NCBI GenBank assembly: GCA_965262725.1
Contig: OZ253555.1
Coordinates: 2,048,001-2,112,000, forward strand
Length of the DNA: 64,000 bases
From: Dehalococcoidia bacterium
GTDB taxonomy: Bacteria; Chloroflexota; Dehalococcoidia; UBA2979
Direction: 5' to 3'
Within the stretch, counting starts at the first letter, position 1; each line of letters opens with the position of its first letter. A model generated the notes under the pieces. That model had not been told where the DNA came from, ran no database searches, and saw only the letters and a program-made list of their open reading frames with translations. Below, piece by piece: positions 1-62,266 of this stretch. The translations under genes and the position numbers were made by a program.

Positions 1-766
1 CGCGGGGGCCGTTCACACGAAGGAAGGTGACAACCGGAGGGTAGAGCGTCCCCGCAGGTGATGAGCGTATCTTCAGCGGACTACTTGGGTCGCGATTCCC
101 CTTGGACAACTCGAAGCTGCACTCACCTCGTGCACCGTCGGCGGCCGTGATCTCCACGGTCATGCGCCAAGTCCAGGTGTCGTCCAAATGGATGCTCTTC
201 GCTCTGGATCGTTGACTGCCATCGGCGTAGGCGATCCTCCCGGACGAATCAGTGTTCTCGAATTCGAGAACACGCAGATCGGCCCCCTTCGGCGTTACCT
301 CGACAGTGTCGCCGCCCCCGTAGCTGTCTGACCACAGGAGCAGTCCCGGCTGGCGTGCATCTCGCTCGTCGTACCAATCGCGCACGGAGGCATTCAGGGG
401 CTCAATCTCGGTGAGCACTCCGCGCGCACCGGAGTGGACCTTTCCATCCGCGCTCGACGCGTGGGCAGTGACGAGATAGCCGCTGTTGCGACCTTGCGGG
501 CCGTAGCGCTGGCGGCGCTCGACTTGCGGCTTGATCACGATCGCTTGAGGCGGAGTGCGAACGCGTCCAAGAAACCACATGACCCAACCGGAAAGTGCGA
601 TCACGGCCGCGACGGTCAGAATGACCCACTCCCACTCGAGCCGGAGATACACGCGTTCAACGACGGCAAGGGCCCCGCCGAGAGTCGGCGGGATGCTCAG
701 TGCAAACGCGAGGTGAGAGTATCCAGCCCGGAACGTTCGAGCACGGTTCGGCCAGCGGAATTTCAT
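1..766 (-). CDS. Hypothetical membrane protein, runs off the left edge of the window
   Basis: Manual translation from ATG at 766 (MKFRWPNRARTF...) has no stop before position 1. Two N-terminal hydrophobic segments (LAFALSIPPTLGGALAVV; WVILTVAAVIALSGWVMWFL). Absent from the ORF track because its stop is outside the window. Confidence 0.65.
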   Translation of the reverse strand, partial: MKFRWPNRARTFRAGYSHLAFALSIPPTLGGALAVVERVYLRLEWEWVILTVAAVIALSGWVMWFLGRVRTPPQAIVIKPQVERRQRYGPQGRNSGYLVTAHASSADGKVHSGARGVLTEIEPLNASVRDWYDERDARQPGLLLWSDSYGGGDTVEVTPKGADLRVLEFENTDSSGRIAYADGSQRSRAKSIHLDDTWTWRMTVEITAADGARGECSFELSKGNRDPSSPLKIRSSPAGTLYPPVVTFLRVNGPR

Positions 767-1086
767 GAGGCCAGTATAGGTTCGCGCGATGTGCAAGTGC
801 CGCGGTCGTGGCAGCGTCTGCTCAGTCCTGGCTGACTCGACGATGGCAATCCCGAGCGACCCGCTGATCGGAGGCGTCGAGTTAACATCCGATTCCGAGC
901 GAGCCTGACCAAGTGGAGAGTCTCGGGGCGGCAGGTGTCCTCACACTCCTGGTACCCGAGCGAGACGCGGTGGCCGATGTCTGGAACAGCAATGCCCGAG
1001 TATCAGGACACTGAAACGGCGCGAGCGAAGCCTTGGCTGTGACCATCGACAGAGCGGAAGCTCTCACATGTCCGGTGTGCAGCGGC

Positions 1087-8039: not shown

Positions 8040-8100
8040 GCCAGACTCCCCCCGGCGCAGTCTACACACGCGCCGGTCGATCGAGGATGTAGGCCTGCTA

Positions 8101-9799: not shown

Positions 9800-10875
9800 C
9801 GGTTCCTGTCCTCACCTTCTTTAACAACAAGGGTGGTGTCGGCAAGACCTCGCTCGTGTACCACCTCGCGTGGATGTTCTCGGAAAGGGGTCATCGGGTG
9901 CTGGCCTGCGATCTCGATCCTCAGGCCAACCTCACCAGCATGTTCCTGGAAGAAGATCGTCTGGAGTCCGTGTATGAGGAAGGCGACGGGTCGCCTTCAC
10001 CGTCTGGAACCATCTTCGAGTGCGTGAGGCCGTTGATGGAGGTGGGAGACCTGCGCTCCCCGACCCTCCAGAAGATCACCACCGAGTTGCAGTTGATACC
10101 CGGCGATTTGGCGCTCGCCGGCTTCGAGGACACGCTATCCGCAGAGTGGCCAAACGCCCTTCGATCAACCGACATCTACCGCCCTTTCAGGATTCTGACT
10201 GCGTTCTCCACCATCATGCAGGACGGTGCCTCTCGGATGGATGCCTCCGTCATCCTCGCCGATGTCGGCCCCAACCTCGGCGCGATCAACCGATCAGCCC
10301 TGATTTCGACTGACTATGTCATCGTGCCCGTTGGGGTCGACCTCTTTTCTCTTCGCGGGCTCCGTAACCTCGGTCCCACACTGCAGAACTGGCGTGCCGA
10401 GTGGGAGAAGCGGCTCCAGAACTGGCTTGACCCAGCCTTCGATCTCCCCAACGGCCGGATGGAGCCTATCGGCTACGTGGTGCAGCAACACGGCGTGCGC
10501 CTGAGCCGGCCCGTACGAGCGTACGATAAGTGGGTCAACCGAATGCCGAGGGAATACGCACGCAGCCTGCTTAGAGATGACCAGGGGCCGTACGCCCCAA
10601 CACCGGAAGACGACGAGCACGCTCTCGCCACAATCAGGCACTACCGGAGCCTCGTTCCGATGGCCCAAGAGGTGCGCAAGCCCGTGTTCAAACTCACCTC
10701 GGCCGACGGAGCCATTGGCAGTCACGCTGCAGCCGCCAGCAGCGCCTACTCCGACTTCAAGACCTTGTCCGAGAACATAGTCGAGCGTATGTCGCAGCCT
10801 TCAACCTCCCGCCGCAAGGAGCGACGCGGCGGACCGGCCGGGCGAGCCGCTTCGCGGAGGGGTCGCATGGGGTGA
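9796..10875 (+). CDS. ParA/Soj-family ATPase
   Basis: Deviant Walker A NNKGGVGKTS, DLDPQANLT, DVGPNLG. ATGA overlap with the upstream gene. Confidence 0.9.
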   Translation: MTVPVLTFFNNKGGVGKTSLVYHLAWMFSERGHRVLACDLDPQANLTSMFLEEDRLESVYEEGDGSPSPSGTIFECVRPLMEVGDLRSPTLQKITTELQLIPGDLALAGFEDTLSAEWPNALRSTDIYRPFRILTAFSTIMQDGASRMDASVILADVGPNLGAINRSALISTDYVIVPVGVDLFSLRGLRNLGPTLQNWRAEWEKRLQNWLDPAFDLPNGRMEPIGYVVQQHGVRLSRPVRAYDKWVNRMPREYARSLLRDDQGPYAPTPEDDEHALATIRHYRSLVPMAQEVRKPVFKLTSADGAIGSHAAAASSAYSDFKTLSENIVERMSQPSTSRRKERRGGPAGRAASRRGRMG

Positions 10876-11114: not shown

Positions 11115-12041
11115 GTGCTCGAACGACCGACGCTCGACGAGATGCTGCTTACGGTCTTCGCGATCGTCGTGTTCGCCATCGTGCAACTCGGCTCGAACTC
11201 CGATGGCAGCGTGGAGCCTCCCGCGGCGACGCCGACTGGGACGCCCCGGGCAGCGGCCCCTGCCGCCACTGCAACGCCCTCGGTCGTCGCGTCGTCCGGC
11301 ACCGCTACCCCGACTGCCACCGTCACCCGGCGGGCCACGGCTACCCCCACCGTGGCCGCAGCGGTCGCCGCCACCCCCGCCACCGCCGCGACCCCGAAGG
11401 ATCCTGACAGCTGTGACTTCCGCGACGAACTCGAGCGCGTGCGTGGCGCGGTCGTCCGCATCCGCGCGCCGGCGAGCCCGTACAGTGGCAGCCAAGGCAC
11501 CGGCTTTCACATCGGCGGCGGCGAGTACGTGACCGCGGCGCACGTCGTGCAGGATGAACGCGGCAGAGCCCACGACGAGATCTACGTGGCGTCGGCGCTC
11601 ACCGGGCGCTCGGAGCGGGCCGAAGTAGTGAGCGCCGGATCGTTCAGCACGAGCGGCGACCGCCAGCACCGCGATATCGCCATTCTCCGGAGCGCCCTCA
11701 TAGTCGCACACTCGATCGCGTCCCGCACCCCGGAGGACGGCGACGTCGGGCGGGATGTGCGGGCGCTCGGCTATCCGTGGTCGCAGGCCGGGGACGACTC
11801 GGCGGCGGTCCCGGCGCCGGTGGTGGTGCGCGGCGTCTTGTCGAACGCTGCGGTGCGCGACAACATAGCCGTCGTCCAGGCCGACGTGCAGGCGCAGAGC
11901 GGCATGAGCGGCGGGCCGCTCGTCGACGAGTGCGGCTTCGTGCTGGCCGTGGCCTCGGCCGTGCCGCGTGCGCTGCGCGGCGAGGCCGGCGACGGTCTCA
12001 CGGTCTTCATCTCGATGGCCGAACTGGACAAGCTGCGGTAG
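11115..12041 (+). CDS. Membrane-anchored trypsin-like serine protease
   Basis: N-terminal TM, Thr/Ala/Pro linker, GTGF, TAAHVV (His), DIAIL (Asp), GMSGGP (Ser). Confidence 0.9.
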   Translation: MLERPTLDEMLLTVFAIVVFAIVQLGSNSDGSVEPPAATPTGTPRAAAPAATATPSVVASSGTATPTATVTRRATATPTVAAAVAATPATAATPKDPDSCDFRDELERVRGAVVRIRAPASPYSGSQGTGFHIGGGEYVTAAHVVQDERGRAHDEIYVASALTGRSERAEVVSAGSFSTSGDRQHRDIAILRSALIVAHSIASRTPEDGDVGRDVRALGYPWSQAGDDSAAVPAPVVVRGVLSNAAVRDNIAVVQADVQAQSGMSGGPLVDECGFVLAVASAVPRALRGEAGDGLTVFISMAELDKLR

Positions 12042-12058
12042 GCAGCGGAGGAGCGGCG

Positions 12059-15000
12059 ATGGGCGCGGTCAACATCTTCCTCGGCGGCACCGGCAAGGCT
12101 GTGGCCGAGGACATCCAGGACAGCCGCGACTTCTATCCGGCGTTCCGCGACGCAATTGGCGACCCCATCGCGTTCGATCTCGACGTCACGGTGCGCGACG
12201 GAGTAGGGCTCGACATCATCGCGCCCGGCGACCTCGCGACGAGTGGCGTCAAGCAGTTGGCGACGCAGTGGTCGACACAGGATCCTGGGCCGGGGGTGGG
12301 CCCGGAGTCGAACGGGAGCCCGCCCGGCCCGCGGCTTGAGGCGGAGCGCTCGCTGCTCGTGAACGTGGGCCGTGGCATCTCCGCCAATCCCGAGCCGGGC
12401 GCTGGGCTCTACGCCCTGCGCGCGCACGGCCTCGCGGTCTTCTCGTTGCTGTTCGACGAGTCGAGGCAAATCGCGGGCGCGGGCGCGGGCACCGAGTTGC
12501 GCAACCGTATCGCCAGCGCTGTCGAGAACCAGACGTTCGGCGGCCGACCGCCGCGTATCAACCTCGTTACCTCCACGGCCGGCGGCACGGGCGCGGGCAC
12601 GGTGATCCCGCTCGCACTGTGGTTACGCAAGGAGTACCGGTACTCGCCGCTCAACCTCATCGCGGTCACCGCGTCGGCCTTCACGAAGGTGCTCAGCGGC
12701 AATCCCACGATGCGGGACCGTGCGGCGAAGGGGCGTTCGGGGACATACGCGATGCTGCGCGAACTCGCGTTCCTCTCGGAGCAGACCGACGACCAGGCGC
12801 AGTTTTCGACGCGCAGCCTGCCGGTCACGGACGGCGGGCTGGAGTACCGCCCGGGGCAGCAGATCTTCCGCCGCGTCTACTGGTTCGGCGGGCGGCGCGG
12901 CGGCAACCCGGAGGATGCCTTCGAGGAGGCAGGGGCGCTGCTACGCCTGCTCAGCCACGATGACAGCGCTGACCGGCTCGACGGGCAGACCGGCTCCGAT
13001 CCGATGCGCTCGGTGGGAGCGATCACGGCGATCGAGTACCCGAAGTTGCGCTACCAGCGCCGCATGATCTCCGCCGTGCTGCAGATGGCGTACCGCGACC
13101 TCCGCGAGTCGCCGCGGGATTACGAGGGCGCTACGCAAGAAGAGACCACGCTGCTTGCCTACGCCGCCAACGAGCCGGGAGGCCTCGGCGGATGGTTCCA
13201 CGATCACCGCCACGACGCGTTCGCCCCGGCCACAGCCATGGACGTGGACCGTTCCGCCGCCGACGATCTCGCCCGCCGCATCCGCACCCCCGCCCAAGCG
13301 TCCGGCGGCTACGAGCGCGTGCAGCGCGGTACCCAGGTGGAGGTCGGCGTCGAGGGCGACATCTACGGCGCCGGCGAGGTCGATTGGCGCAAGTACGTCG
13401 GCAGGGTCAAGGACGGCCTCGACCGCGAGGCGGACCGCAGGCAGAGGGGCCTGCAGCGGGCGATCCGCGAGATGCGCCGCGAGGAGGAGCAGGCGTTCGG
13501 CCGTTGGCTCAAGCAGGAACTGGAGCAGCGCCTCGGCAGCGAGGGCTCCGATGCGACCGGCGGCGTGCTGCAGCTACTAGCCGGGCTCGACGCCAATGCC
13601 TCCGAATTGCAGGAGCGGGTCGGCCGGGACGGCTTCTTCGGCAGCGAACTCACCCTCGACCAGAGCGATGCGCGGATCCGGGAGGCAACGGACAAGTTCG
13701 ACAATCCGCCGCGGGCTGCGGCCGAGCCCTCCGGCCTCGACCGCTGGATGCCGCTCGGCCTCGGCGCCGTCGCCCTCTTCGCCGTGCTCGCCATCGCTCG
13801 GGCGATTCCCGGGCGCAGCCTCGCCGGCGTCGGGACCGAGTGGATTGCGTGGGGTCTCGCGTTCGCCGCGATGTTCGTGACGTACCGTGGCGCACGCTCG
13901 TGGAGGATGAAGGGCAAGGCCGCATCGCTCGAGACGCAAAGGCAGCGCGCCGAGGCTCGCCTGTTCGAGGCCTACGAGGAACGCGACCGCGTGCGCGCGC
14001 TGCAATGGATGCATCAGGAGCTGCGCGGGCACGACGGCGCTTTGCCGTTCTTCGGCGAACTGCGTCAGCAGATCGACTCAGCGCGCACCGCCGTTGGCGA
14101 TCTCGAAGCCGCCTACAAGGAGCTGGAGGCCTTGGCCACCTACGATGTCTCGCAGGCGGGCGAGAGCCCGCCGCACGTCGCGGCCGAGGTCGGCGACTGC
14201 GTTCCTCACGACCCGGATCTCGCCGGCAGCATCGCGGGCAAGATGCGGGAGCGCTTGCGGATCGAGGCACAGGCCAGCCCGAAGCCCCGCGTGCTGGAGC
14301 TGACGCTGCGGCTCGTTCCCGGCGAAGCCGACGGCGATGTCTTCGCTCCGGTCGTCGGGGCGGTCGGCCCGATCCTGCAGGCCCTGCGCGACACAGAGCA
14401 GGCGGGCCTCGAGGACGCCAAGCGAATCGCGAACCGCTGGCGCGAGTCGGTCTGGAACCTGATCAACGTGGAACTCGGCCAACGCCTGCCGGATGACTTC
14501 AGCGCCGCGCTCGCCGAATGCGCGGACGGGGATGCGGGCAAGGCGTCGAGCACGCTGGCCTCCAAGCTGCTCGGCCTTGACTTGCCGCGCGGGCCCTCGG
14601 TCGAATTGCAGGCCGCGGCGGCCGCACCGGCCGTGCGAGGCGTCTTCGTCGGCGGCACGGCGATCGGGGCCGAGTTCAACCTCGCGCTGCGGGCGCCCGA
14701 GATGGCCCCGAACCTGGCGGCGCTCCAGTCCTACGGCGAGCCGCAGATCGTGCCCGCGCTGGGCCAGCAGATCGTCTTCCTCGACCTCTGGGTCGACCCC
14801 GGCGTCCATGACTGGGCGCCCGGCGTGATCGGCAGTGCCACCGAGGCCAGGGCGGCGATGAAGACCTACTACGGCGCGGAGGTCGGCGTCCCGCCAGGCG
14901 CGACGGCACGGGAGACCTGCTTCACGGTGCTGCCCGAGCTGCTCGCGGCGACCAAGGTCGAGCTGCTCGACGGCGACGTCCAGCCGCTCGCGCCCGCGGT

Positions 15001-15598
15001 CGTCGCGCGCATGCTGGGCAGCGACCTCGATACGCAGGGCCCCACCTACGCCGAGCTCTTCTACCTGCTGCGCGCTCGCCGCCGGCTCTCCTCGAGTGTC
15101 GAGGGCGCCGGACCCGCGGCCCGCGAAGTCACGACGATCGCCGGCGAGGGCGGCGGTCCGCTGCGGCTCGTCGACTGGCCGCCCGGCGGCCTCAGCGACG
15201 GCGTCTTCGGTGACGGACGTATGACCGTGGTCGCCTTCGACGCCTTCTGCGAGTTCATGCGCTTCGACGGCACTCCCGGCATCGCCGGCGAAGCGTCGGC
15301 TGACGGCCTAACCTTCCCCGGTGCCACGATCTTCGCCACCGACTGGCAGCGCGAACGCGAGCGGGTCGCCGCGCTCCAGCGCGCGGTCGTACGGGAGTGG
15401 TATCACGGTGACGTCGAGGCCGACTGCGCCGCCATGATCGCGCTGCTCGAAGAGGACCTGGGGCGCATGGCGGACGGCCGGGACTACGCGCGAGAGAGCT
15501 GGGGACGCGCGATGCGGCGACTGCTCGCGGGCGACGAGCGGCGCAAGATCCGCGCGACGCACCTCGACGGGTCCGGCGGACAGGGGAGCGGTGGCTGA
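12059..15598 (+). CDS. Large tubulin/FtsZ-like (Tubulin_2 / FtsZl1-type) protein with central TM hairpin and coiled coils
   Basis: ATG 12059 after a GGAGGAG RBS. N-terminal IFLGGTGKAV and signature loop TSTAGGTGAG. Two TM helices mid-protein flanked by helical repeats. Confidence 0.8.
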   Translation: MGAVNIFLGGTGKAVAEDIQDSRDFYPAFRDAIGDPIAFDLDVTVRDGVGLDIIAPGDLATSGVKQLATQWSTQDPGPGVGPESNGSPPGPRLEAERSLLVNVGRGISANPEPGAGLYALRAHGLAVFSLLFDESRQIAGAGAGTELRNRIASAVENQTFGGRPPRINLVTSTAGGTGAGTVIPLALWLRKEYRYSPLNLIAVTASAFTKVLSGNPTMRDRAAKGRSGTYAMLRELAFLSEQTDDQAQFSTRSLPVTDGGLEYRPGQQIFRRVYWFGGRRGGNPEDAFEEAGALLRLLSHDDSADRLDGQTGSDPMRSVGAITAIEYPKLRYQRRMISAVLQMAYRDLRESPRDYEGATQEETTLLAYAANEPGGLGGWFHDHRHDAFAPATAMDVDRSAADDLARRIRTPAQASGGYERVQRGTQVEVGVEGDIYGAGEVDWRKYVGRVKDGLDREADRRQRGLQRAIREMRREEEQAFGRWLKQELEQRLGSEGSDATGGVLQLLAGLDANASELQERVGRDGFFGSELTLDQSDARIREATDKFDNPPRAAAEPSGLDRWMPLGLGAVALFAVLAIARAIPGRSLAGVGTEWIAWGLAFAAMFVTYRGARSWRMKGKAASLETQRQRAEARLFEAYEERDRVRALQWMHQELRGHDGALPFFGELRQQIDSARTAVGDLEAAYKELEALATYDVSQAGESPPHVAAEVGDCVPHDPDLAGSIAGKMRERLRIEAQASPKPRVLELTLRLVPGEADGDVFAPVVGAVGPILQALRDTEQAGLEDAKRIANRWRESVWNLINVELGQRLPDDFSAALAECADGDAGKASSTLASKLLGLDLPRGPSVELQAAAAAPAVRGVFVGGTAIGAEFNLALRAPEMAPNLAALQSYGEPQIVPALGQQIVFLDLWVDPGVHDWAPGVIGSATEARAAMKTYYGAEVGVPPGATARETCFTVLPELLAATKVELLDGDVQPLAPAVVARMLGSDLDTQGPTYAELFYLLRARRRLSSSVEGAGPAAREVTTIAGEGGGPLRLVDWPPGGLSDGVFGDGRMTVVAFDAFCEFMRFDGTPGIAGEASADGLTFPGATIFATDWQRERERVAALQRAVVREWYHGDVEADCAAMIALLEEDLGRMADGRDYARESWGRAMRRLLAGDERRKIRATHLDGSGGQGSGG

Positions 15599-17957
15599 GC
15601 GCCCGCCTCGCAGGCGCCTCGCCGCGGCTCTGGTCGCCGCGCTTGCGCTCGCGGCGCTGCTGGCGGGAGCGGGACTGCCGCGCCCCGGTGGCGACGCCGC
15701 CGCGCAGACACCTGCCGAGTCGCCGCCTACCCGCGTCGTCTTCGCCATCGATAACTCCGGCTCCATGTTCGGCGTCGGCGGCGAGCCCGCCAGCGACCTC
15801 GACCAACAGCGCATCGAGGGCGTCCGCGGCCTGATCGAGGTGCTGCGCGGCTTCCTCGGCGCTCCCCGCGAGCAGCGCCGCGTCGAGCTCGGCGCGCTCT
15901 CGTTCGGCGGCGACGAGCCGGAGCTTCTGAGCGCGCCCGCCTCGGTGCTCGATGAGGCGCTGCCGGACCGGCTGCGCGCTGAACCCGTGGGGGGAGGCAC
16001 CGACTTCCGCTCGGCGCTCTGCGCCGCCTGGGCGATGGCTACGGGCGAGACGCCGCCGGCCAGCGCCAGCTGCCCTCCCCTCCCGTTCGGATTCGCCGAC
16101 ACCACCCCCGCCGCCGACAGCCGCCTGCTCGTCGTCGTGATCACCGACGGCAGCCCCGCCCGCGGCGGCGACGACCTCGGCTTCGACGGCGATCCCGTGG
16201 CCGCCGACTGCCCCGGCGGCCACGGCGGCTACGACTCTCCGGACGGCGACGCCTACCTTTGCGCGCTCGCGGCGACATGGACGGCGCTGCGCGCCGAGCG
16301 CGCCGCCGACCTCGTCGTGATCGGCCTCGACGCGCCCGGGCGCTGGTTCCCGGCCGCCGAGACGCACTGGCAGCGCGTCGCCCAGTGCGGCGGCCCGGGC
16401 CAGCGCGACTGCGCCGACCGCGTGGTCCGCAGCGTCGATCCCGGGCAGCTCGCCGCGCTGATCCTCGGCGCGTTCCCGGGCGTCGACCTCTGCGAGGCGG
16501 TCGCCGATCGCGGCGACGCGTTCACCTGCGACGTGCCGGGCGGCCTCGCCGCCGTCGGCTTCCAGGTGACGGGCCTGAACGCGGGTGCGCTCACCGGCAT
16601 CGAGAATACGGCCGGCGAAACCTACCGCTCCGATGTCGCGCACCGGGAACTGGGGGGGCGCGGCGAGAGCGCGCACGTATGGCGCTTCGAGCGGCCAGTC
16701 GCCGGCGGGTGGATGGTGACGGCCAACGGCCCGCCCGGCCAGCGCGCCATCGTCGACTACGCGCCGGTCGAGTTCCGCGTGGAGCTGCGGACGTGGGACG
16801 CCGTACGCGGCCTCTTGGGGTTCGTGCTGGCCACGGCCGCCGATGTGCACGTCGCCTCGCTACTCGACCAGCCGTACCGCCTCGAGCTGCTGCACGACGG
16901 GCGGAGCATCGAGGGCATAGAGGTGATGCTCGCCCACGAGGGCGGCAGGGCGTACTCGCTGGAGGTGCCGCTCGCGGCGGGCGCGAGCGGCGGCGTGTAC
17001 ACGGTCGTGCTCTACCTTCAGACCGCGCGCACGCTGATCGAGGTCGGGCGGCTCGAACTGCCCCCGCCCCCGGCACCCACACCCTCACCCTCGCCCTCGC
17101 CCTCGCCGTCTCCCTCCCCCTCACCGCCGCCGTCTCCCACGCCAGAAGCGACACCGCCTCCCCGGCCAGAGGCGACACCACCTCCCCCGCCTCCGTGCTC
17201 GGAGTTCGAGGCGAAGTGGGAGGGCGAACCCGGCACCGCGTCGCGCTGGCGCTGGGCCTTTCGCGCTGGCCTCGAACTCCCGCCCGTCCGCTTCCGCGAC
17301 TCCGCCGTCTGGCGCGTCACGATCGAATCGCCGGACTGTGACGAGCCGATCGCAGCCAGCGCCCGCATCCTCGGCTGCGAGTGGTGCGAGGCCGAGACGG
17401 AGGGCACGCCGCCGCTCGCGCCGCTCGACGTCCCGACGGCCGGACGTCCCGACGATGCCTCGACGCGCGCGTGGTTTGCGGAGTCGCCGCGCACCACCGA
17501 CGGCGCGAGTGAGCCTGTGCGGCTCTCCGACTCGTGGCTGTTGCACGCGGAGCCCGTGTGGGCGGCCGCGCTGCACCTGCTGGCGCTGGCCGCGCTCGCG
17601 GTTGGCGTGAGCGCGGTCGCGGTGCGGCGTCCGCACAAGTGGCGTCACGGCGAGACGCCAGAGGCGCCGATCCGCCTCGCCGTGCCCGACGAACGCCAGC
17701 GCCTGGCGGGCATCGTGCGCCTCGGGACTTTCGTCGGGCGGCGCAGCCCGCGCGACGAGACAGCTAAAACGGAGGGTAAGTTGCTCACGCTGCGCTGGCT
17801 GATCTTCGGCCCGCTCGTCGCCCGCGAGACCGCAGAGGGCGCGACGCGGCGGGCGCGCTGGTTCGGCGTTCCCACCGCCCAGGCCCCCGACGCCCAGGCC
17901 CCCGACGCCGAGGCTCGCCGCCTCGACATCCGCCGCCTCCCGCCCCGCCGCGCCTGA
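15591..17957 (+). CDS. Surface vWA-domain protein (signal peptide, MIDAS, Cys-rich, Pro-rich linker, C-terminal TM)
   Basis: VVFAIDNSGSM (DxSxS), GGTDF, VVITDG, PSPSPSP linker, TM WAAALHLLALAALAVGVSAVAV. Overlaps the tubulin-like gene stop. Confidence 0.85.
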   Translation: MAERPPRRRLAAALVAALALAALLAGAGLPRPGGDAAAQTPAESPPTRVVFAIDNSGSMFGVGGEPASDLDQQRIEGVRGLIEVLRGFLGAPREQRRVELGALSFGGDEPELLSAPASVLDEALPDRLRAEPVGGGTDFRSALCAAWAMATGETPPASASCPPLPFGFADTTPAADSRLLVVVITDGSPARGGDDLGFDGDPVAADCPGGHGGYDSPDGDAYLCALAATWTALRAERAADLVVIGLDAPGRWFPAAETHWQRVAQCGGPGQRDCADRVVRSVDPGQLAALILGAFPGVDLCEAVADRGDAFTCDVPGGLAAVGFQVTGLNAGALTGIENTAGETYRSDVAHRELGGRGESAHVWRFERPVAGGWMVTANGPPGQRAIVDYAPVEFRVELRTWDAVRGLLGFVLATAADVHVASLLDQPYRLELLHDGRSIEGIEVMLAHEGGRAYSLEVPLAAGASGGVYTVVLYLQTARTLIEVGRLELPPPPAPTPSPSPSPSPSPSPSPPPSPTPEATPPPRPEATPPPPPPCSEFEAKWEGEPGTASRWRWAFRAGLELPPVRFRDSAVWRVTIESPDCDEPIAASARILGCEWCEAETEGTPPLAPLDVPTAGRPDDASTRAWFAESPRTTDGASEPVRLSDSWLLHAEPVWAAALHLLALAALAVGVSAVAVRRPHKWRHGETPEAPIRLAVPDERQRLAGIVRLGTFVGRRSPRDETAKTEGKLLTLRWLIFGPLVARETAEGATRRARWFGVPTAQAPDAQAPDAEARRLDIRRLPPRRA

Positions 17958-17977
17958 CGCCTCCGCCCGTAGCGCGC

Positions 17978-19147
17978 CTACCGGCAGTCCTCGTCGTCAA
18001 AGGGCTTCACGAAGTAGAGATTGAGGCGCACCTCCTGAGACACGAGTGCCTTGGGTGCGAGGTAGTCGCCGAACCATTCCCAGCGCCCTTCGGCAGGCGC
18101 GTCCCGCAGGATGTCGATACCGGCGCGCCGCAGCCCCTCGGAGAAAGCGTCGTTGACATGCCGCGCGAGGTCGACGTGGTTGCCGTCCGGCTCGTGGGCG
18201 AACGTCTCCACGAGCGCGATGCGCAACCCCTCGGCGAGCTTCTCACGCAGGAACGCCTCTGCCCGTGAGTCGGACCAATCGCCGTCCCCGATCTTGTCAA
18301 GTTCCGCTGACTTGATGACGTCCTCCCGTACCTGGCTGTTGGCGATTTCATCCCAGTCGACAGCACCGAGCGCGGCCCCGGTGAGCACGATCTGGGCGAA
18401 ACGGAAATCGGTCTGCACCTCGGAGCACTCCGGAGCCGACGCTACGACCGCAGTGCGCGGCAGCAGTACAGGGAAGGCGGCGCTGTGCTCGCTGCCGTCA
18501 CTCGACACGGTGAGGGTGACGGCACCCGACTCGTAGAAACTCGCCAAGAAGCTCGAGGCTCCCCCCGCGTCCGGCTCGCCGCGCTCGGCTGTCCACTTGT
18601 ACAAGAACGGCTCGTCGCCTCCGATCTCCGGTGTGCAGCGCACGTTGATCCGGCCACCGGCCGCCGGGCCGCCGGGTGCTTCCATCTCGCAGCCGATGTT
18701 GAGGATCACCGGAGGGATGATCGGCGGAGCAGCAGGTGGCGGCAGGACTGCGAACTCGGCGCTGTCATCGCCACCCTCGTTCGAGACGGTGAGGCGGACG
18801 GCTCCCGCGTCCTTGAAGTTCGCCAGGAAGCTCGATGCGTCACCCGCGTCCGGCTCGCCGCGCTCGGCTGTCCACGCGTAGGACTGCGCCTCGTCGGCCC
18901 TGAGTCGCGGCTCGCAGTGGACGGGGATCAGCCCGGCGACCCGCTCGCCCTGCTCGCAGCCGAGATCGAGGATCTCTGGCGCTTCGACAAGCGGCGCCTC
19001 GACGGACGGCTCGGCGGCGACGGGCGTCGCCTCGGGGTCCCGGTCCGCGGACAGGACGCCGGACGTGAGGGCGAGGAAGACGAGCGCCAGCACCAGCATG
19101 AGGTCGGCCAGCAGCCAGCCTGCGATGCCGACTCCCTCGTCGTTCAC
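17978..19147 (-). CDS. MotB/ExbD-like single-TM protein with two PKD/Ig-like repeats
   Basis: N-terminal GWLLADLMLVLALVFLAL has an intramembrane Asp as in MotB/ZorB. Two internal repeats share WTAERGEPDAG.ASSFLA.F...GAV.LTVS. Confidence 0.6.
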   Translation of the reverse strand: MNDEGVGIAGWLLADLMLVLALVFLALTSGVLSADRDPEATPVAAEPSVEAPLVEAPEILDLGCEQGERVAGLIPVHCEPRLRADEAQSYAWTAERGEPDAGDASSFLANFKDAGAVRLTVSNEGGDDSAEFAVLPPPAAPPIIPPVILNIGCEMEAPGGPAAGGRINVRCTPEIGGDEPFLYKWTAERGEPDAGGASSFLASFYESGAVTLTVSSDGSEHSAAFPVLLPRTAVVASAPECSEVQTDFRFAQIVLTGAALGAVDWDEIANSQVREDVIKSAELDKIGDGDWSDSRAEAFLREKLAEGLRIALVETFAHEPDGNHVDLARHVNDAFSEGLRRAGIDILRDAPAEGRWEWFGDYLAPKALVSQEVRLNLYFVKPFDDEDCR

Positions 19148-21849
19148 CGCCGCCCGCCCCGCCCGTCGCCAAGTTCGTCGAGCACGCGAGTCGCCACGGT
19201 GTTCATCCTGCTCGCCGCCAGCTCAAGCGAAGCGGCGCTGCGCTCGATGCCCGAGTCGGGGCCGCTGAACTCACCGGCCATCGCGTCGGTGAGCAGGGCC
19301 AGTTGCCCCGCCAGCCGCGCGAGCTGCTGCGAGGCGTCGTCCAGCTTGCCCGCCGACGGCTCGAGACTGCCCCCGATGCCCTCAAGCGCCTCGGCGCTGC
19401 GTGCTGTCGCCTGCTCCACGCTGGCGAATGCGGCCTGGAGCGCGCTCAGTTCGCCGCCGGCCAGTTCGATAGCGCTCGCCGCGACATCGAGCCGCTCCGC
19501 AGCGGGTTCGAGGCTGCCGCGGATGCCTTCGAGCGCGTCGGCGCTGCGCGCGGACGCCGCCTCGCTGCTGGCGAACGCGGTCTGCAGCGCGCCGATCCGC
19601 TCGGCTGCCCGCTCGGCCGCGCTGGCCGCCTTTGCGAGGTCGCGCGCGGACGGCTCGATACCGGCGCGGATGCCCTCGAGCGCGTCGGCGCTGCGCGCGG
19701 CGGCGGCCTCGGCCCCGGCGAGCCCGCGCTGGAGCGCCGCGAGCTGGTCGCCGATCTGCGCGACGCGGCCGAGCCGCTCGACGATCGCGGCGCTCTGCTC
19801 CTGCTGCTGTTTCGCCATCTCCGATGTCTGGTCGAGCGCCTCCCGCACCGCGACGAGCGAGTCGGCGAAGGGCTGGGCCGAGGCTTGCAGCGAGGCCCCG
19901 ACGGCGCGCAGTTCGCGCGTCAGTTCGCTGCCGGCGACGGCGAAGCCGGCGAGCGCCTCCTGCGGATCGGCGGCGCGCTGCGCCGCGCCAGCCGCCTCCG
20001 CCTGCGCGAGCACGGCGGCAAACGCCCGCGCTTCGCGCGCCGCTGCCCACCCGGCGCGCCCACGGATCAAGCCGAGCCACACGTTCACCGCGATCAGCAG
20101 CCCAAGGACGCCGGCGACTTGCAGTGCGGCGTGCTCAAGAGTCCCGCCGAGCCACCACCTGAAGATTCCGCCCAACGGCCCATCGCCGCCTTCCTGCACC
20201 CAGAACTCGAAGAACGGTTCTGAGCGATCCCATGCCGAGACTGCCGACTGGAGCTTGATCCACGTCCACAGCACCGGCATGAAGATCAGGACGTTGCGGA
20301 CGAGCTCGACGAGCCACTCGAAGCGATTGCGTACGAGGGCGGCGCCGACCATCTCCGGCGTGATGGCCGCCGGCGCCACGCTCATCGCCGGCGGCGACTC
20401 CCCGCGCTCGACGCCCGCGACGCGTTGCGCGTACTCCGAGACCGCCCCGGCGAGCCTCTGCGCGCCCGCACGGGCGAGCCGTCGCGCGTAGCCTTCAAGG
20501 CCCGCCGAGGCGCTCGGGGTATCGGCCGAGTGTCCGGCCGGCGCGTCCGGCTCCGAGGCGGCCGGCGGCTCGTTCGCCGTGGGTTCGGCAGGCTTCTCCT
20601 TGCCGTCCTCGTCACGCGCAGCGCTATCCGCTGTGGATGCGACGTGCGGAGCCCCCTGATCGGGCGGCTGCTCGCCGGGGTCTTCACTCACGGGCTCCTC
20701 CTCGCCGGTCGGCAGCTCGTCCGCCGCGGCTTCGGCAGGCTCCTCCTCGACATCCTCGTCACGCGCGGCGCCATCCGCTGCGGATGCGACGTGCGGATCC
20801 CCCTGATCGGGCGGCTGCTCGCCGGGGTCTTCGCTCACGGGCTCCTCCTCACCAGCCTCGCCGGGGCTGGGCGGCGTCAGGTCGGTGCGGACGGCGGGGC
20901 GGGCGCGCAGTCGCTCGTGCTCCTCGGGTGTGATCAGGCCCTCGTCGGCGAGGCTCTGCAACTCGCGCAGGCGCGACCTATCGCCGCTGCCGTCCGGCGG
21001 CTCCTCGCTCATGGCCTCCCCCTCGCCGCCCGGCGTCCCGTGCGGACGCCCGTCCACCGCGCTCGTGCGGTTGCGATGCTGCCCGCCCGCATCGCCCTCG
21101 ATCAAGCCGTCGCCGCTCCGGGACCGACGACCACCGGTTGCGTGGCTCTTCTCGCCGGATGCGTCGGCGTCCGGCCGCTCCTCCGCGCCGGGCACTGACT
21201 CCACCGACGATGGCGGGGCTTGGTCGTCGTCGCCGGAACCGGCGGCCGCCTCGCGCCGGGCCTGCTCCTCCGCTTTGCGGCGGGCCTGCTCCTCCCGGTT
21301 TCGTTGGGCTCGGCGTGCCTGCGCGAGGCGACGGGCGACGCCGGCTTCGCGTTCGAGGCGGTCACGCTCCTCGGCCTCCAGACGGTCACGCTCCTGCTCC
21401 GTCTCGCGGCGGCGGCGCTCCTCGCCGTCGCGGCGGGCTCGATCGACGGCGTCTGGCCACTCCTCCGCCTCGCGGCGCTGCCGCTCCTCATCGCGACGCG
21501 CCTGTTCGGCATCGCGCTGGGCCGCCTCTCGCCCGGCGAGCCTCACTTGGCGCTCGCTGTCCGATTCGAGTTCGTGGAGCCGGAGGCCGCGCCGCTCGCG
21601 CAGCAACTCGGGCAAGTTGAGCCACTCCTCGGGCGACATCAGCTCCTTCAGGCGCACGAGGGTCACTCGCTCGATCGCCTGGGCCCGGCCGCCGCGCGCA
21701 CGCCGTTCCCGATCGATCCAGCGGAAGTCGGGATCGTCCGAGCGCACTATGCGCGGCGCGAGATCCTCCAAATAGTACCGTTCCTGCTCGTCCCAGCGGC
21801 TCCACGCTCGGATCAGGTCGTCGAGCAGATCGAGGGCCGTCCCGTGCAT
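19144..21849 (-). CDS. SHOCT + TM + long coiled-coil protein (MotA/ZorA-like partner by context); strong internal start at 21012
   Basis: SHOCT RLRELQSLADEGLITPEEHERLRAR. Hydrophobic LVRNVLIFMPVLWTWIKL and ALQVAGVLGLLIAVNVWLGLI. ~300-aa heptad tail. Stop overlaps the MotB-like start. GGAGG RBS before ATG 21012. Confidence 0.6.
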   Translation of the reverse strand: MHGTALDLLDDLIRAWSRWDEQERYYLEDLAPRIVRSDDPDFRWIDRERRARGGRAQAIERVTLVRLKELMSPEEWLNLPELLRERRGLRLHELESDSERQVRLAGREAAQRDAEQARRDEERQRREAEEWPDAVDRARRDGEERRRRETEQERDRLEAEERDRLEREAGVARRLAQARRAQRNREEQARRKAEEQARREAAAGSGDDDQAPPSSVESVPGAEERPDADASGEKSHATGGRRSRSGDGLIEGDAGGQHRNRTSAVDGRPHGTPGGEGEAMSEEPPDGSGDRSRLRELQSLADEGLITPEEHERLRARPAVRTDLTPPSPGEAGEEEPVSEDPGEQPPDQGDPHVASAADGAARDEDVEEEPAEAAADELPTGEEEPVSEDPGEQPPDQGAPHVASTADSAARDEDGKEKPAEPTANEPPAASEPDAPAGHSADTPSASAGLEGYARRLARAGAQRLAGAVSEYAQRVAGVERGESPPAMSVAPAAITPEMVGAALVRNRFEWLVELVRNVLIFMPVLWTWIKLQSAVSAWDRSEPFFEFWVQEGGDGPLGGIFRWWLGGTLEHAALQVAGVLGLLIAVNVWLGLIRGRAGWAAAREARAFAAVLAQAEAAGAAQRAADPQEALAGFAVAGSELTRELRAVGASLQASAQPFADSLVAVREALDQTSEMAKQQQEQSAAIVERLGRVAQIGDQLAALQRGLAGAEAAAARSADALEGIRAGIEPSARDLAKAASAAERAAERIGALQTAFASSEAASARSADALEGIRGSLEPAAERLDVAASAIELAGGELSALQAAFASVEQATARSAEALEGIGGSLEPSAGKLDDASQQLARLAGQLALLTDAMAGEFSGPDSGIERSAASLELAASRMNTVATRVLDELGDGRGGRR
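20584..20853. repeat. Intragenic direct repeat, 147-bp period
   Basis: 20584-20706 ~ 20731-20853, encoding GEEEPVSEDPGEQPPDQG.PHVAS.AD.AARDED twice. Confidence 0.9.
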
Positions 21850-21865
21850 CGCTATCCCCGAGTCG

Positions 21866-22909
21866 TTACAGCGTGTCGAGGATCGCGTCGACCAGAACGC
21901 GGGCACCGAAGGGCTCGCGGCGGGCGTCGCCGGCGTAGGCGAACAGCGGGCTGCTGGTGCCCCACGCGAAGGCCGGTTCGTGGTCGCCCGCGACCTGGCC
22001 GAGGTTCAGCGCCTCCGCCAGCCGCCGACCTCCTATCACGTCCATCGCGCGCACGCGCTCGTGCCAGCCCGGTCCGGCTGGCAGCGACTCGATCAGCGGC
22101 GGGTGCACTGAGAAGCGCAGGCGGTCAGCCTTTGTCACCACCACCCAGACGCGGCGGCCGCCGGGCGGTGCTTCCACAAGCTGGAGCACGCGGTCGTTGG
22201 CGTCGGCGGGCTTCCGCCCGTCGCGCAGGGCGTCGGGGAAGGAGTCGGCGATCTGTGCGTGCTGCGTCGGGTCGATCACCAGCACGACCGCGTCGAACTC
22301 AGCGAGGGGCGGCAGCGGGCCGCGGCGGCCGCCTTCGATCGCGCGGGACTCCCAGATCCGCAGCGCTGCCTCGCTGCCGTCGCCACGCCGCACGGCGAAC
22401 TCCGTCGCGTGCAGGCTGCCGTCCTCGCCGCTCCGGACGGGCCCCGCCAGGCGCGGGCCGACGGCGGCGATCATGCCCTCGACGAGCGCCGACTTGCCGG
22501 CGCCGGCGGGGCCGCTGACCAGCACCCAGCGGTCGGGGGCCGTCTTGTCGCGCCGCAGCTCGTCGTCGGAGAGCACCTCGGCGGCAGCCCGTCCCCAGTC
22601 GTCCCGGATCCGGCGGTTTACCGCCCAGTACGCCAGAGCTCCCGCCGCCGCCGCGGCGGCAGCGGCGACGAGCAAGGTCTGACTGCGGTCCGCGAACGCA
22701 CCGAAGGTGACGCAGCCCGCGATGAGCATGGCGAGAGCGAGCGACGCCTGCGAGCGAGATGTACGGTGGCGCGAGAACGGCCTCAACGTCAGCAGCACAT
22801 CGGCTGCAAGCGCCCCGAGAGTCGCGCTCAGCAGCACCACAAGTGCGAATGCGCGCTCGATCTCGGGGAGGGCGAGGTCGAACGGGAATGGCCAGTCGGG
22901 GACGCTCAC
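21866..22909 (-). CDS. Membrane-anchored P-loop (TRAFAC-type) GTPase
   Basis: Three N-terminal TMs, G1 GPAGAGKS, G4 VVVTKAD. The G3 region is degenerate (LRIWESRAIEG). Confidence 0.7.
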   Translation of the reverse strand: MSVPDWPFPFDLALPEIERAFALVVLLSATLGALAADVLLTLRPFSRHRTSRSQASLALAMLIAGCVTFGAFADRSQTLLVAAAAAAAAGALAYWAVNRRIRDDWGRAAAEVLSDDELRRDKTAPDRWVLVSGPAGAGKSALVEGMIAAVGPRLAGPVRSGEDGSLHATEFAVRRGDGSEAALRIWESRAIEGGRRGPLPPLAEFDAVVLVIDPTQHAQIADSFPDALRDGRKPADANDRVLQLVEAPPGGRRVWVVVTKADRLRFSVHPPLIESLPAGPGWHERVRAMDVIGGRRLAEALNLGQVAGDHEPAFAWGTSSPLFAYAGDARREPFGARVLVDAILDTL

Positions 22910-23389
22910 TGTCGTTTCGGCTCACTCTGCATGGCCGCGATGGTACGCGTTGCCACCAGCACGCGCTGCACCTCCCAAGAGCTCAGTGCCTCGATGGATC
23001 AGGTGCTCATCCTGACCCGCTTCGGCTTCAACGTGGCAGCGATGAAGGCCACCGGAGCTTTCCCCTGCGGGATGGGGAGGACTGGTCTCGACCTGCGGAC
23101 TTCGCCACCATCTAGTCGTCCGAGACAGGCTGCTCGGTTCGTACCTTGCCTGGAGCTCCTACGCTCCGGGCAGACGCAGCCAGTGACGGGTCGCGTTCTG
23201 GCCTACCGGAACACTGTTCAAGCCAACTCGCTGTCGTTGAGCAGCACCCACCCGTTCGGCATGGCGCTCCTGCCGGGCGAGCGGCGTGCGAGCTGCACGG
23301 CCGCAGCGCGTTCACCTCCCCGCGGCTCCCGGCTCGCGCGCCTACAGAGCCACCGTCAATTCGAAAGTTCGCAGTACAGTCTTCCTTGG

Positions 23390-23720
23390 CCACCCTGCAG
23401 GGCATGACGCCGCTCGAGAAGCTAGAACGACTGCGGGCCGAGTTCCTTGGCATGGTCAGCCGTGAGGTGCTGACGCCCCTGACCGCGATCAAGGGCTCGG
23501 GCGCCGCCGTCCTGGGATCCTCGTTCCCCGTGAGTCTCGCCGAGGTGCGCCAGCTTCTTTGGCATCGTCGACGAGCAGGCTGACCACATGCGGCGGCTGA
23601 ACCGGGATCTCCTCCGACGTGACGCAGATCAACGCGGGAACGTTGCGGTCAGCCCCGAGCCCGATGACGTGGCGGCCATCGTCGACGCAGCCCGGTCCGC
23701 GTTCCTAGACGGCGGGCCCG
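23390..23720 (+). pseudogene. Histidine kinase (HisKA) remnant
   Basis: LERLRAEFLGMVSREVLTPLTAIKGS is an H-box with His replaced by Arg. Frameshifted continuation IVDEQADHMRRL..DLL. No HATPase domain. Confidence 0.7.
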
Positions 23721-24903: not shown

Positions 24904-25737
24904 ATGATCCCGACGACCATGGGCACGGAGCGATCCGCAGCCGAGGCACGCAGCCGGGCCGGGCGCACCCGCGGGACGGGACGGGCCGCCGGTGTGATCC
25001 GCGTCTGCCTGTTCGACGAGTGCGAGCTCACCGAGGACGGCGAGTACCGTCCGCTTCCACGGGCCGTCCGCCGCCTGCTCGCGCTGCTGGCACTCAACCG
25101 GGAGGGTCTCTCCCGGAGCGACGCCGCGGCGCTGCTCACGCCGCACCTGAGCACGCAGGGCGCGCGCGGGAGCCTGCGGAAGACGCTCACGTGGCTGCGG
25201 GCCACGGGGCTGGACGTGGCGGAGGTCGACGGCGCCACGCTGCGGCTGGCCCCCGGGGTGAAGGTGGATGCGTGGGAGCTGGAGGAGCTGGTTGCCGGCC
25301 TCGCCGCGGGATCGGTGTCCCCCGGGCACGAACAGTTCCAGCGCTTGGCGTCCTGGCCCCCGCCCCGCTGGTACCCTCCCTGGCTGAGAGCCGAACTCGA
25401 GCGTCTGCGCGACCTCGTGCTGGAGGCGCTGGAGGCGGACGCGCGCCGGGCGGCGGCGGGCGGCGATGTGGAACGAGCACTGGCCGCCGCCTTCGCGGCG
25501 GTGGAGATCGATCCGCTTCGCGAGAGCAGCGTCGGCGTGCTGCTCCAGATGCTTTGCCTGGCGGAGCACCACACCGGGGTGCTGGAGATCTCCCGTTCCT
25601 TCTATCGGAGTCTCGAGGCCGTCGGGCGCGCGCCCTCGGAGGCGATGCAGGCGCTCGTCGCGGCGATGCTGGGTAGCGCCTACGGGAAGATGATCGAGAG
25701 CCTTCCTCGCAGCCGTCGCCGTCGTGCGCGGCGCTGA
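24904..25737 (+). CDS. SARP/AfsR-like regulator (wHTH + BTAD)
   Basis: RRLLALLALNREGLSRSDAAALL...ARGSLRKTLTWLR, VDAWE, AVEIDPLRES. Confidence 0.8.
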   Translation: MIPTTMGTERSAAEARSRAGRTRGTGRAAGVIRVCLFDECELTEDGEYRPLPRAVRRLLALLALNREGLSRSDAAALLTPHLSTQGARGSLRKTLTWLRATGLDVAEVDGATLRLAPGVKVDAWELEELVAGLAAGSVSPGHEQFQRLASWPPPRWYPPWLRAELERLRDLVLEALEADARRAAAGGDVERALAAAFAAVEIDPLRESSVGVLLQMLCLAEHHTGVLEISRSFYRSLEAVGRAPSEAMQALVAAMLGSAYGKMIESLPRSRRRRARR

Positions 25738-27694: not shown

Positions 27695-27818
27695 GTCGTG
27701 TCCTCCGATCCCGTCGCCGCGCCCGGAAGGAGCGTCTCGCGGCGGGGTCCGCGAGCGCCGGAGCGACTCGTCGCCGGGCCGGCCGCGGTGCCGGCCGGCG
27801 GCGCGGGCACGACCGGAG

Positions 27819-33116: not shown

Positions 33117-33148
33117 CGGACGGCTCGCGGAGCCGGAAGGAGGGTCTC

Positions 33149-60649: not shown

Positions 60650-62266
60650 ATGGGCAGAACTGAGCGAGCGGTCGGGTACGTCCGCGTCTCCACCGAGGAA
60701 CAGGCCGACGGGCACTCGCTCGATGCCCAGCGCCGCGAGATCGCACGCCACTGCGAGCGGCACGGGTACGAACTCGTGCGGATCTACGCGGACGAGGGCG
60801 TGAGCGCGCACACGGAGAAGATCGAGAAGCGGCCGATGCTAGCCGCGCTCCTCGACGCCTCCTCCCGCCGCGAGTTCGATGTCGTGGTGGTGCACACGAT
60901 TGATCGCTGGGCGCGGAACGTTGGTGTCCAGCGGCAGGCCCTGCAGTACCTCGGTCAATTCAACGTCGGCTTCGCCAGCGTCACCGAGAACATCGACTTC
61001 ACGACGCCAGCGGGGAAGCTGATGTTGACGATGATCGGGGGCGTCTCGGAGTTCTTCTCCGATCAACTCGCCGTCCACGTGAGCAAGGCGTTCCGGGAGC
61101 GGGCCGAGAACGGACTGCCGCCGGGTCCCGTGCCCTTCGGGTACGTGGCGCCGAGTCCCGGCGCGATCCCGGGCGTGGTCCCCGGGGAAGGGGAGGCGGT
61201 CGCCGAGGTCTTCCGGCAGCGGGCGCAGGGGGAGTCGTACGGCGCCATCGCCCGGTGGCTGAACGCGGAGGGCTTCGAGACGCGCGGGCACAACCCGGTC
61301 TTCACGTCGTTCGCGGTGAAGGACATGCTCGCCAACGTCTTCTACCGCGGTGCGGTTCTGTACAAGGGGACCGAGTTCGCGGGCGCCCACGAGGCGCTGG
61401 TCGACGACGACCTCTTCCGGCAGGTGCAGGCGAAGCGGGGGGTGCGGCGACAGCGGCGCCTCGTGGTCGGTGGCCGGGGGATCCTCCAGGGGCGGGTGAG
61501 CTGCGGGCACTGCGGAAGGGCGCTCCAATCCGACCGTGATCACCGGGGACGGCCGATGTACCGGGAGCGTCACGGCGAGCGGTGCAGCACGAACAACCGA
61601 TCCCTCATGGCCGCGGGCGTCGACGAGCAACTCGGTGCGATCTGGAAGTCGGTGCAGTTCTCGACGGACTGGCGCGACCGGATGGCGGAGATCCTCTCAG
61701 CCGGTTACGACGGTCCGAGCGCCGAGGACCTGGCCGAGAATCGTCGGCGCATCGCCCGGGCCTATGCCGACGGGGGACTCAACGAAACCGAGTACGAGGT
61801 GCGCCTCGCCGCGATCGACAAGCGCGCCCGGGACGTGCTCCGCCCCTCGGGCCCCGCGTTCGACGAGGCGGCGGAGTTGTTCTCGGACATGCCTGCGCTG
61901 TGGGAGCGGGCCGCGCCGGAGGAGCGGCGGCGGCTGGTGGCTCCCCTGATCGAGCGCGTCTACCTCGACATCGACTCGAGGCGCATCGGCGCGATCACGC
62001 CGACACCGGAGTTCAAGGCGCTGATCGACCATGCGCTCGAGCCGACGGCCGATCCCGAGGTCGCGCTGATCCCGCCGGAATCGGCTGAAGACGTTAGCAG
62101 TTGGAGATCCTGGAGATGGAGGTCAGGTGACATAACTGCCGACGACGGGGTCGATTTGAATCTGGACGAAAACGCTGACCTAGTAAACAGTTGGAGATGG
62201 TGGAGACGGGGGAGAATCGAACTCCCCGTCCAGAGAGCGTCCGTCACGGATCTGCTACGGGTGTAG
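60650..62266 (+). CDS. Large serine recombinase (integrase) of the ssrA-integrated island
   Basis: AVGYVRVSTEEQ, DRWARN, recombinase domain, Zn ribbon CGHCG. The last 69 nt overlap the tmRNA 3' end in antisense. Confidence 0.92.
   Translation: MGRTERAVGYVRVSTEEQADGHSLDAQRREIARHCERHGYELVRIYADEGVSAHTEKIEKRPMLAALLDASSRREFDVVVVHTIDRWARNVGVQRQALQYLGQFNVGFASVTENIDFTTPAGKLMLTMIGGVSEFFSDQLAVHVSKAFRERAENGLPPGPVPFGYVAPSPGAIPGVVPGEGEAVAEVFRQRAQGESYGAIARWLNAEGFETRGHNPVFTSFAVKDMLANVFYRGAVLYKGTEFAGAHEALVDDDLFRQVQAKRGVRRQRRLVVGGRGILQGRVSCGHCGRALQSDRDHRGRPMYRERHGERCSTNNRSLMAAGVDEQLGAIWKSVQFSTDWRDRMAEILSAGYDGPSAEDLAENRRRIARAYADGGLNETEYEVRLAAIDKRARDVLRPSGPAFDEAAELFSDMPALWERAAPEERRRLVAPLIERVYLDIDSRRIGAITPTPEFKALIDHALEPTADPEVALIPPESAEDVSSWRSWRWRSGDITADDGVDLNLDENADLVNSWRWWRRGRIELPVQRASVTDLLRV

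Follow-up and report, generated by a model that had tools for sequence, protein, structure and literature searches.

We analysed a stretch of 64,000 nucleotides from a Dehalococcoidia bacterium (assembly GCA_965262725.1, contig OZ253555.1, positions 2,048,001 to 2,112,000), here called the window, which carries a cassette of six genes for a protease, a tubulin-like protein of the FtsZl1/Tubulin_2 family, a von Willebrand factor A (vWA) protein, a GTPase and two coupled membrane proteins named A and B. Coordinates are positions in the window, L- and G-numbers designate the loci and genomes compared, and G000 is the source genome, a single contig of 3.67 Mb with 70.6% GC. As shown in Table 1, the six open reading frames were confirmed, and they form the two convergent three-gene blocks described in the original prediction, with 20 bp between the stops of the vWA and B genes. 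At least one hydrophobic segment was detected in each product, in agreement with the claim that all six are membrane proteins.

Table 1. Features of the cassette and of the tmRNA end in the window.
Feature	Position	Strand	Evidence
Membrane-anchored trypsin-like serine protease	11115..12041	+	PF13365 E 1.9e-15
FtsZl1/Tubulin_2 protein, 1179 aa	12059..15598	+	PF13809 E 1.5e-10; AF2 fold match
vWA protein, intact MIDAS	15591..17957	+	PF13519 E 0.0011 (below cut-off); MIDAS motifs
B subunit, invariant-Asp helix, PKD-like repeats, degenerate OmpA-like domain	17978..19147	-	ExbD profile match; weak fold matches
A subunit, two membrane helices and long helical tail	19144..21849 (likely start 21849 or 21012)	-	SHOCT E 0.0013; family alignment
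Three-helix membrane-anchored TRAFAC-type GTPase	21866..22909	-	P-loop GK[S/T], TKxD; G3 = WE
tmRNA gene 3' end, probable att site	62198..62214	+	aragorn; exact 17-bp repeat ~119 kb upstream

The protease and tubulin genes are separated by 17 bp, the tubulin and vWA genes overlap by 8 bp and the B and A genes by 4 bp. The A frame is open from 21906 (19144-21906), which would give a 41-bp overlap with the GTPase gene; a start at ATG 21849 is more likely, with an RBS (ribosome-binding site)-like GGGATAG and the same start in L001, in such a way that the overlap disappears, and a second strong start is ATG 21012. The GC content at third codon positions (0.85-0.90) and the rough ratios of nonsynonymous to synonymous substitution against L001 (0.22-0.47, in 6/6 genes) support that the six genes are coding and under purifying selection. 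The cassette (11.8 kb) is present in single copy, and its GC content is no different from that of the genome. Neither a sigma-70 promoter nor a terminator between the converging blocks was found.

The 1179-residue protein is a member of the FtsZl1/Tubulin_2 family, as had been proposed. It matched PF13809 with 41.3 bits (cut-off 27), and in an alignment of 42 homologues the T4 motif AGGT-GAG was invariant and the T1 motif GG[T/S]G was present in all of them. The AlphaFold2 (AF2) model built on this alignment (pLDDT 83.5, pTM 0.72) showed the tubulin fold, matching BtubA with a Z of 18.2 (root-mean-square deviation, rmsd, 4.1 over 317 of 413 residues, model range 1..976) and CetZ1 with a Z of 18.7 (rmsd 4.2, 296 aligned); the range was 1..913 with FtsZ and reached residue about 424 with beta-tubulins. 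The GTP-binding domain occupies residues 1-326 and the remainder of the fold about 850-976, followed by a helical C-terminal domain (helical part 928-1170), and residues about 330-850 are long helices, marked between 440 and 700, around a hydrophobic hairpin (559-618). Because the match range reaches 976 while about 330-850 is formed by these helices, the fold appears in the model to be complete but split by a membrane-inserted coiled-coil stalk of ~500 residues, whose boundaries were taken from secondary structure, the structural alignments giving end points only. The predicted membrane anchor was found as a two-helix hairpin rather than a single helix, in 42/42 homologues. No conserved T7 catalytic Asp was detected in the alignment, so that GTP hydrolysis by the usual neighbour-subunit route would be doubtful.

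Bacterial dynamin-like proteins combine a nucleotide-binding head, a long out-and-back helical stalk and a membrane hairpin at the tip. The cassette tubulin is like them in layout only, its head having a tubulin fold and not a dynamin P-loop domain, and the Foldseek matches of the model to Drp1 were weak and helical. The top Foldseek matches, to alpha-helical pore toxins (TM-score 0.06, rmsd 35), were rejected as long-helix matches.

The protease consists of an N-terminal helix, a Pro/Thr linker and a catalytic domain that is predicted to lie outside the cell. Its His and Ser motifs were kept in the six cassette loci described below and the Asp motif in five of them by the pattern used, and the gene is absent from a distant operon, L015, and from loci with only tubulin and vWA genes. 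The vWA protein, with an N-terminal signal or anchor, a Pro-rich linker, a C-terminal membrane helix (about 653-681) and a short tail, is presumably surface-exposed, and the DxSxS and TDG of its metal ion-dependent adhesion site (MIDAS) were conserved in 6/6 loci. The GTPase has three N-terminal helices and keeps the P-loop GK[S/T] and the predicted TKxD, with DxxG absent and an invariant WE at G3; it may be able to bind GTP but not to switch in the normal way. Its Atlas feature score to small-GTPase clusters was 0.92, PF19993 (DO-GTPase) gave no match, and its alignment by hhalign with the DO-GTPase2 of L015 was weak (E 1.3e-4, probability 54, 65 columns); it is probably a derived member of the DO-GTPases, a family with a conserved Glu in Walker B. 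All the signatures on which the original prediction relied (GGTG, AGGTGAG, the DxSxS, T and D of the MIDAS, the trypsin H/D/S triad and TKxD) were present and conserved.

B begins with a helix, GWLLADL, followed by two PKD-like repeats (zero to two in relatives) and a degenerate OmpA-like C-terminal domain. The helix motif GW[LF]xAD was present in 27/27 sequences, with W, L and D invariant. The best match of its profile in the Protein Data Bank (PDB) was ExbD (E 0.0043), with the Asp of B aligned on D25 of ExbD and TolR scoring lower, and its match to the MotB profile, over the helix only, was better than those of 40/40 shuffles. In the AF2 model of B (pLDDT 85.9) the C-terminal domain was confidently folded; its best fold matches were mostly OmpA-like domains but all weak, SiiA with a Z of 6.2 (rmsd 3.4, 87 aligned), a MotB-like protein with 5.4 and ZorB with 4.5. 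Foldseek gave nothing for B at E<=0.001, and SiiA was also the top Atlas lead for the C-terminal domain (score 0.81, to be taken as a lead only). A wall-less host as the cause of the degeneracy of this domain was rejected, as G000 encodes MurA and Mur ligases.

The N-terminus of A is variable (helical domain, charged coil, SHOCT, acidic linker); it is followed by two membrane helices and then by a repetitive helical tail of about 300 residues. The helices carry the motifs P..TW.G and FL.LW..GF, the latter at the loop, with Pro, Thr, Trp and Ala conserved; the first helix falls below the hydropathy threshold in the source copy and was recognised from the family alignment. In most cassette copies A includes a fused SHOCT domain, and three further SHOCT proteins are encoded in the island described below, at 6804-8069 (-), 40342-42243 (-) and 42250-43011 (-), one of them carrying DUF4352 and trypsin domains and another an RDD domain. 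A profiles gave no match in the PDB, or generic coiled coils only, and no curated family was found for A or B in Pfam, NCBIfam or PADLOC.

The six genes travel as one unit that is patchily spread. All of them, in the same order and convergent layout, were found in five other loci (L001, G009, G504, G496 and L007; G493 duplicates L001, so the two count as one), with tubulin identities of 45-60%, in such a way that the two blocks, whose co-occurrence had been anticipated, were kept together in each. Three short contigs (L008-L010) show the protease gene adjoining the tubulin gene, and wherever the sequence extends far enough downstream, the tubulin gene is followed by the vWA gene. The tubulin gene was present in 5/99 genomes of the family, G000 included, and in 0/4 congeners, and 49 homologues (41-96% identity) were found in the protein collection. 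Those relatives that carry a name belong to Dehalococcoidia and Chloroflexota. No relatives were found in viral contigs or plasmids. A tubulin match in G249 (E 4e-5), whose flanks hold no cassette partner, was not used. As gene calling was incomplete in low-GC loci, counts are based on tblastn, hidden Markov model and Pfam calls.

The cassette was then compared with related operons. L015, which matches G109, is a co-directional operon of genes for a PP2C phosphatase, a kinase, DO-GTPase2, GAP1-N2, A, B, a tubulin (26% identical) and a vWA protein; in G109 a TerY gene lies just ahead of it. The accessible part of Kaur et al. 2020 (PMC7159879) recasts GTPase/tubulin/vWA loci as conflict systems predicted to act against invaders. 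L015, a relative, is a full member of these DO-GTPase/GAP1-N2 systems, which share with the cassette, as far as that text goes, a TRAFAC GTPase with membrane helices, a coiled-coil tubulin, an extracellular vWA protein and occasionally a trypsin. The cassette differs in lacking a GAP1 protein and, as far as Pfam shows, an FNIII protein, and in having a single GTPase, without DxxG: no GAP1 gene lies beside its GTPase gene, and Pfam gave no FNIII match in the cassette, whose vWA and B proteins carry beta domains that are unassigned or PKD-like. MotA and MotB have no mention in the main text and two supplements of PMC7159879, Figure 6 lying outside that scope. The cassette reads as a reduced derivative of an L015-type operon that would have lost GAP1, kinase and phosphatase, gained a protease and come to have its halves facing each other.

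The accessible part of Makarova and Koonin 2010 (PMC2875224) describes loci in which vWA, GTPase and OmpA-like genes accompany FtsZl1, and the cassette shares with them a Tubulin_2 protein of ~1100-1200 residues with a coiled coil, an adjacent MIDAS vWA protein, a TKxD GTPase and an OmpA-like membrane protein. Its differences are the membrane-anchored GTPase, the absence of a kinase, the convergent blocks and a model that completes the tubulin fold after the ~500-residue insertion; according to the same text, the C-terminal part showed no resemblance to tubulins. Its neighbour table includes MotA/TolQ/ExbB and OmpA genes in Deinococcus, B7 and COG1360 genes in cyanobacteria, and a serine protease, and it treats the OmpA-like proteins as transport or porin-like and not as motor subunits. 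In the FtsZl1 locus of a Deinococcus deserti plasmid (L135, 852-7512) the tubulin gene is directly followed by genes for a MotA-type protein, whose long tail is ZorA-like, and for a canonical OmpA/MotB protein; no relation between this MotA-like protein and A was detected. Both the identity of the cassette as a reduced form of the DO-GTPase/GAP1-N2 systems and the MotA/MotB-like genes listed beside FtsZl1 in the part of PMC2875224 consulted had been missed in the original prediction. From these comparisons, the cassette is a GAP1-less, protease-bearing variant of the FtsZl1 systems of 2010 and the GTPase-centred conflict systems of 2020.

A and B are a large uncurated family that usually closes DO-GTPase/GAP1-N2 or TerY-kinase-phosphatase operons. 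At E<=0.001 the A family contained 929 representatives, Streptomyces proteins among them, and the pair amounts to hundreds of clusters, in Chloroflexota and in Streptomyces. The long A profile matched 81 genomes, 56 of which, with the coiled-coil part only, were dropped, leaving an A core in 25/401 genomes of the phylum, G000 included. In 21 of 25 other loci examined, the gene right after A is B, one miss being a cut contig and another having B further on. Among 20 wider A loci (six from one genus, so not independent), 9 have a DO-GTPase gene, 11 a GAP1 gene and 17 either of these or vWA, PP2C or kinase genes. A-B is surrounded in L096 (3063-12414) and L109 (116-9168) by DO-GTPase and GAP1 genes, two of each, on opposite strands in a convergent layout, with Hsp70 nearby. 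A-B stands after caspase and SPFH-like genes in L105 (4657-11394), before a CHAT-TPR gene in L106 (449-15364) and alone among housekeeping genes in L101 (9121-10337), surroundings varied enough to suggest that the pair plugs into different partners.

The A-B pair shares with ExbBD, TolQR, SiiAB and MotAB the motif of the B helix, with SiiA as the top fold match of the B C-terminal domain; unlike them, A is unrelated by profile and the cassette has no TonB/TolA or flagellar partner, and PF01618 was not found in G000. With ZorAB, as described in the accessible part of Hu et al. 2024 (PMC11946911), it shares an Asp-helix B, whose OmpA-like domain is only weakly matched in the cassette, an A with a long chemoreceptor-like helical tail and a defence context. 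The differences are the two helices of A, which at the sequence level has no match to the MotA/ZorA core, and partners that are GTP-binding membrane proteins and not nucleases. The cassette is not a Zorya system: ZorC, ZorD and ZorE are absent, PADLOC gave no Zorya match, soluble ZorF or ZorG partners included, among 10 window proteins, and its ZorA matches for A relatives cover the tail only.

The cassette lies on an island. An exact repeat of the 17-bp 3' end of the transfer-messenger RNA (tmRNA) gene was found outside the window, at genome positions 1991470-1991486, and the two copies are probably the attachment (att) sites of the ~119-kb island that they bracket. Its contents include a relaxase, a coupling protein, VirB4, VirB6, serine recombinases and transposases, together with genes with type I restriction-like N-termini (judged from the N-termini, with no profile scan). 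A Replic_Relax relaxase and the coupling protein (1087-5333, -) lie at one end of the island stretch, and VirB6, PrgI, VirB4, a primase and a serine recombinase (49934-62266, +) at the tmRNA end; with a further recombinase at 42981-44231, the island is a composite integrative element. Just upstream of the cassette, at 8468-10875 (+), a gene for a Schlafen/AlbA_2 protein with RecG-C overlaps by 4 bp that of a ParA-like ATPase, both with a lower GC of 0.63-0.64. They are possibly a ParA-effector defence pair as in bioRxiv 10.64898/2026.10.19.760177, the accessible text of which names a kinase-Schlafen form and not the Schlafen/AlbA_2 plus RecG-C form. Upstream of the GTPase gene, short broken pieces resembling a histidine-kinase gene were recognised by eye at 23024-23700, and the region 24904-40250 holds two BTAD regulators, a LysM-BTAD protein and a Tad-pilus-like block (ParA/CpaE-like protein, T2SSE ATPase, two T2SSF proteins, prepilin peptidase).

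Defence genes were found beside the cassette in three of the five other loci. In G504 it sits between ZacABC (Azaca) and SngABC (Shango), with a type I methyltransferase; TmtA-like and HerA-like genes are near it in G009, and a type I restriction subunit in L001. These neighbourhoods, with the patchy distribution and the island, bore out the claim that the cassette is mobile.

The best explanation of these data is that the cassette is a compact system of the FtsZl1/DO-GTPase type which would have lost GAP1, kinase and phosphatase and gained a surface protease. We tentatively favour, at a level somewhat short of probable, that it works as a mobile six-part defence machine at the membrane that senses the envelope, since the six genes are co-conserved, present in so few genomes of the family, flanked by defence genes and related to the L015 operon, since A-B adjoins conflict genes and the Deinococcus locus has its own stator-type pair, and since action against invaders was predicted for such systems (PMC7159879, in its accessible part). 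In such a machine, the PKD and OmpA-like domains of B would anchor it outside the cell, and A, arranged around the Asp helix of B, would form with it an ion-driven sensor or motor like ZorAB. The surface vWA protein, through metal-dependent binding, and the protease would detect or process an envelope signal, such as phage attachment, and the cytoplasmic tail of A would relay it to the membrane GTPase and the tubulin-like protein. The latter would oligomerise on GTP binding and, pinned by the hairpin at the coiled-coil tip like dynamin-like proteins, deform, seal or depolarise the membrane, in such a way that the infection is contained or the cell killed. The remodelling or conflict machine of the original prediction was therefore supported in part.

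Several results weigh against a defence function. No nuclease or other known effector was found in the cassette with PADLOC, which also gave no match on the L007 flank (one gene tested), and in G496 the cassette is flanked by housekeeping genes, with a type IIG gene ~12 kb away. GAP1-N2 was not found in G000 (no PF20013 match in a genome 91.6% complete, the control matching in 1/14), and literature searches, which did not cover subscription journals, found no experimental study of any FtsZl1 system. An accessory machine for membrane remodelling, vesicles or adhesion, as Makarova and Koonin proposed, is a rather unlikely alternative, as is the corresponding division of labour, in which the tubulin would shape the membrane, the vWA protein and the protease would act on outside substrates and A-B would energise the process like ExbBD or TolQR. 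All six products being membrane-bound, the lack of a toxic effector domain, the resemblance of B to ExbD, TolR and SiiA, which energise transport, and the context in G496 are consistent with it, and tubulin+vWA pairs in five genomes of genus g119 suggest stable inheritance. The patchy spread, the island, the defence neighbours and the position of relatives within TerY-PP2C-kinase and GAP1-N2 operons argue against it.

Also against the defence machine, seven more distant genomes have tubulin and vWA genes without A, B, GTPase or protease genes in the fetched flanks, and a tubulin gene was found in 0/20 other A loci (two queries), indicating that each module can exist without the other; a genome-wide search with the A profile, run without a positive control, matched in none of five tubulin+vWA-only genomes. 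Protease-tubulin-vWA and GTPase-A-B could then be functionally separate modules captured side by side once and co-inherited since, which we hold improbable. That the blocks are convergent and separately transcribed, that each half occurs alone elsewhere and that the six cassette loci are kin would fit such a capture. It is harder to reconcile with both blocks being kept in all 6/6 loci that are long enough, at identities as low as 45% and in differing surroundings, with A, B, tubulin and vWA genes adjacent and co-directional in L015, and with MotA/MotB-like genes adjoining FtsZl1 in Deinococcus and cyanobacteria.

The remaining points against the defence machine concern its motor. The claim that A and B resemble a stator pair stood for B, with its Asp helix, ExbD match and OmpA-like fold, a weak one (Z<=6.2) in which the usual wall-binding motifs are not kept, and did not stand for A, which matched the MotA profile with E 0.2, within 40 shuffles, so that no relation was detectable, and has two membrane helices and not three or four. 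In the same test, as a positive control, the MotA-like neighbour of the Deinococcus FtsZl1 gene was found with E 7.6e-6. The complex predicted from four A cores and two B helices scored 0.10 and 0.06 (mark 0.32) and counts neither way. A gene order of A then B with an overlap is the usual one of stators. This order, the Asp of B invariant in 27/27 and aligned with D25 of ExbD, and the conserved Pro, Thr and Ala of the A helices speak against the alternative that A-B is no ion-driven rotary motor and that A is instead an effector with two helices and a coiled-coil tail that forms a pore or acts as a scaffold, with B as its plug or anchor and the GTPase/tubulin module as its trigger, for which we see little likelihood in spite of the missing MotA homology, the two helices and a TW in place of the channel-lining GT motif. 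The more specific proposal that A-B is an unrecognised family of minimal two-helix ion motors, serving as Zorya-like sensor for GTPase/kinase/tubulin conflict systems whose output is a dynamin-like membrane tubulin that remodels or severs the membrane on infection, we regard as unlikely, if less so than this pore. No account of the A-B family or of a split tubulin fold was found in the literature outside subscription journals, which were not covered.

FtsZl1 systems were predicted as early as 2010, and a self-contained cassette that can be cloned whole makes the prediction testable. The apparent division of the tubulin fold by a stalk inserted in the membrane suggests a way for a tubulin to act on the bilayer directly, and an A-B pair that recurs in GTPase, TerY-kinase and tubulin operons may be an energised sensor common to several predicted immune systems. 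If the two-helix motor and the membrane tubulin are both real, they would constitute an immune pathway leading from a proton motor to the cytoskeleton.

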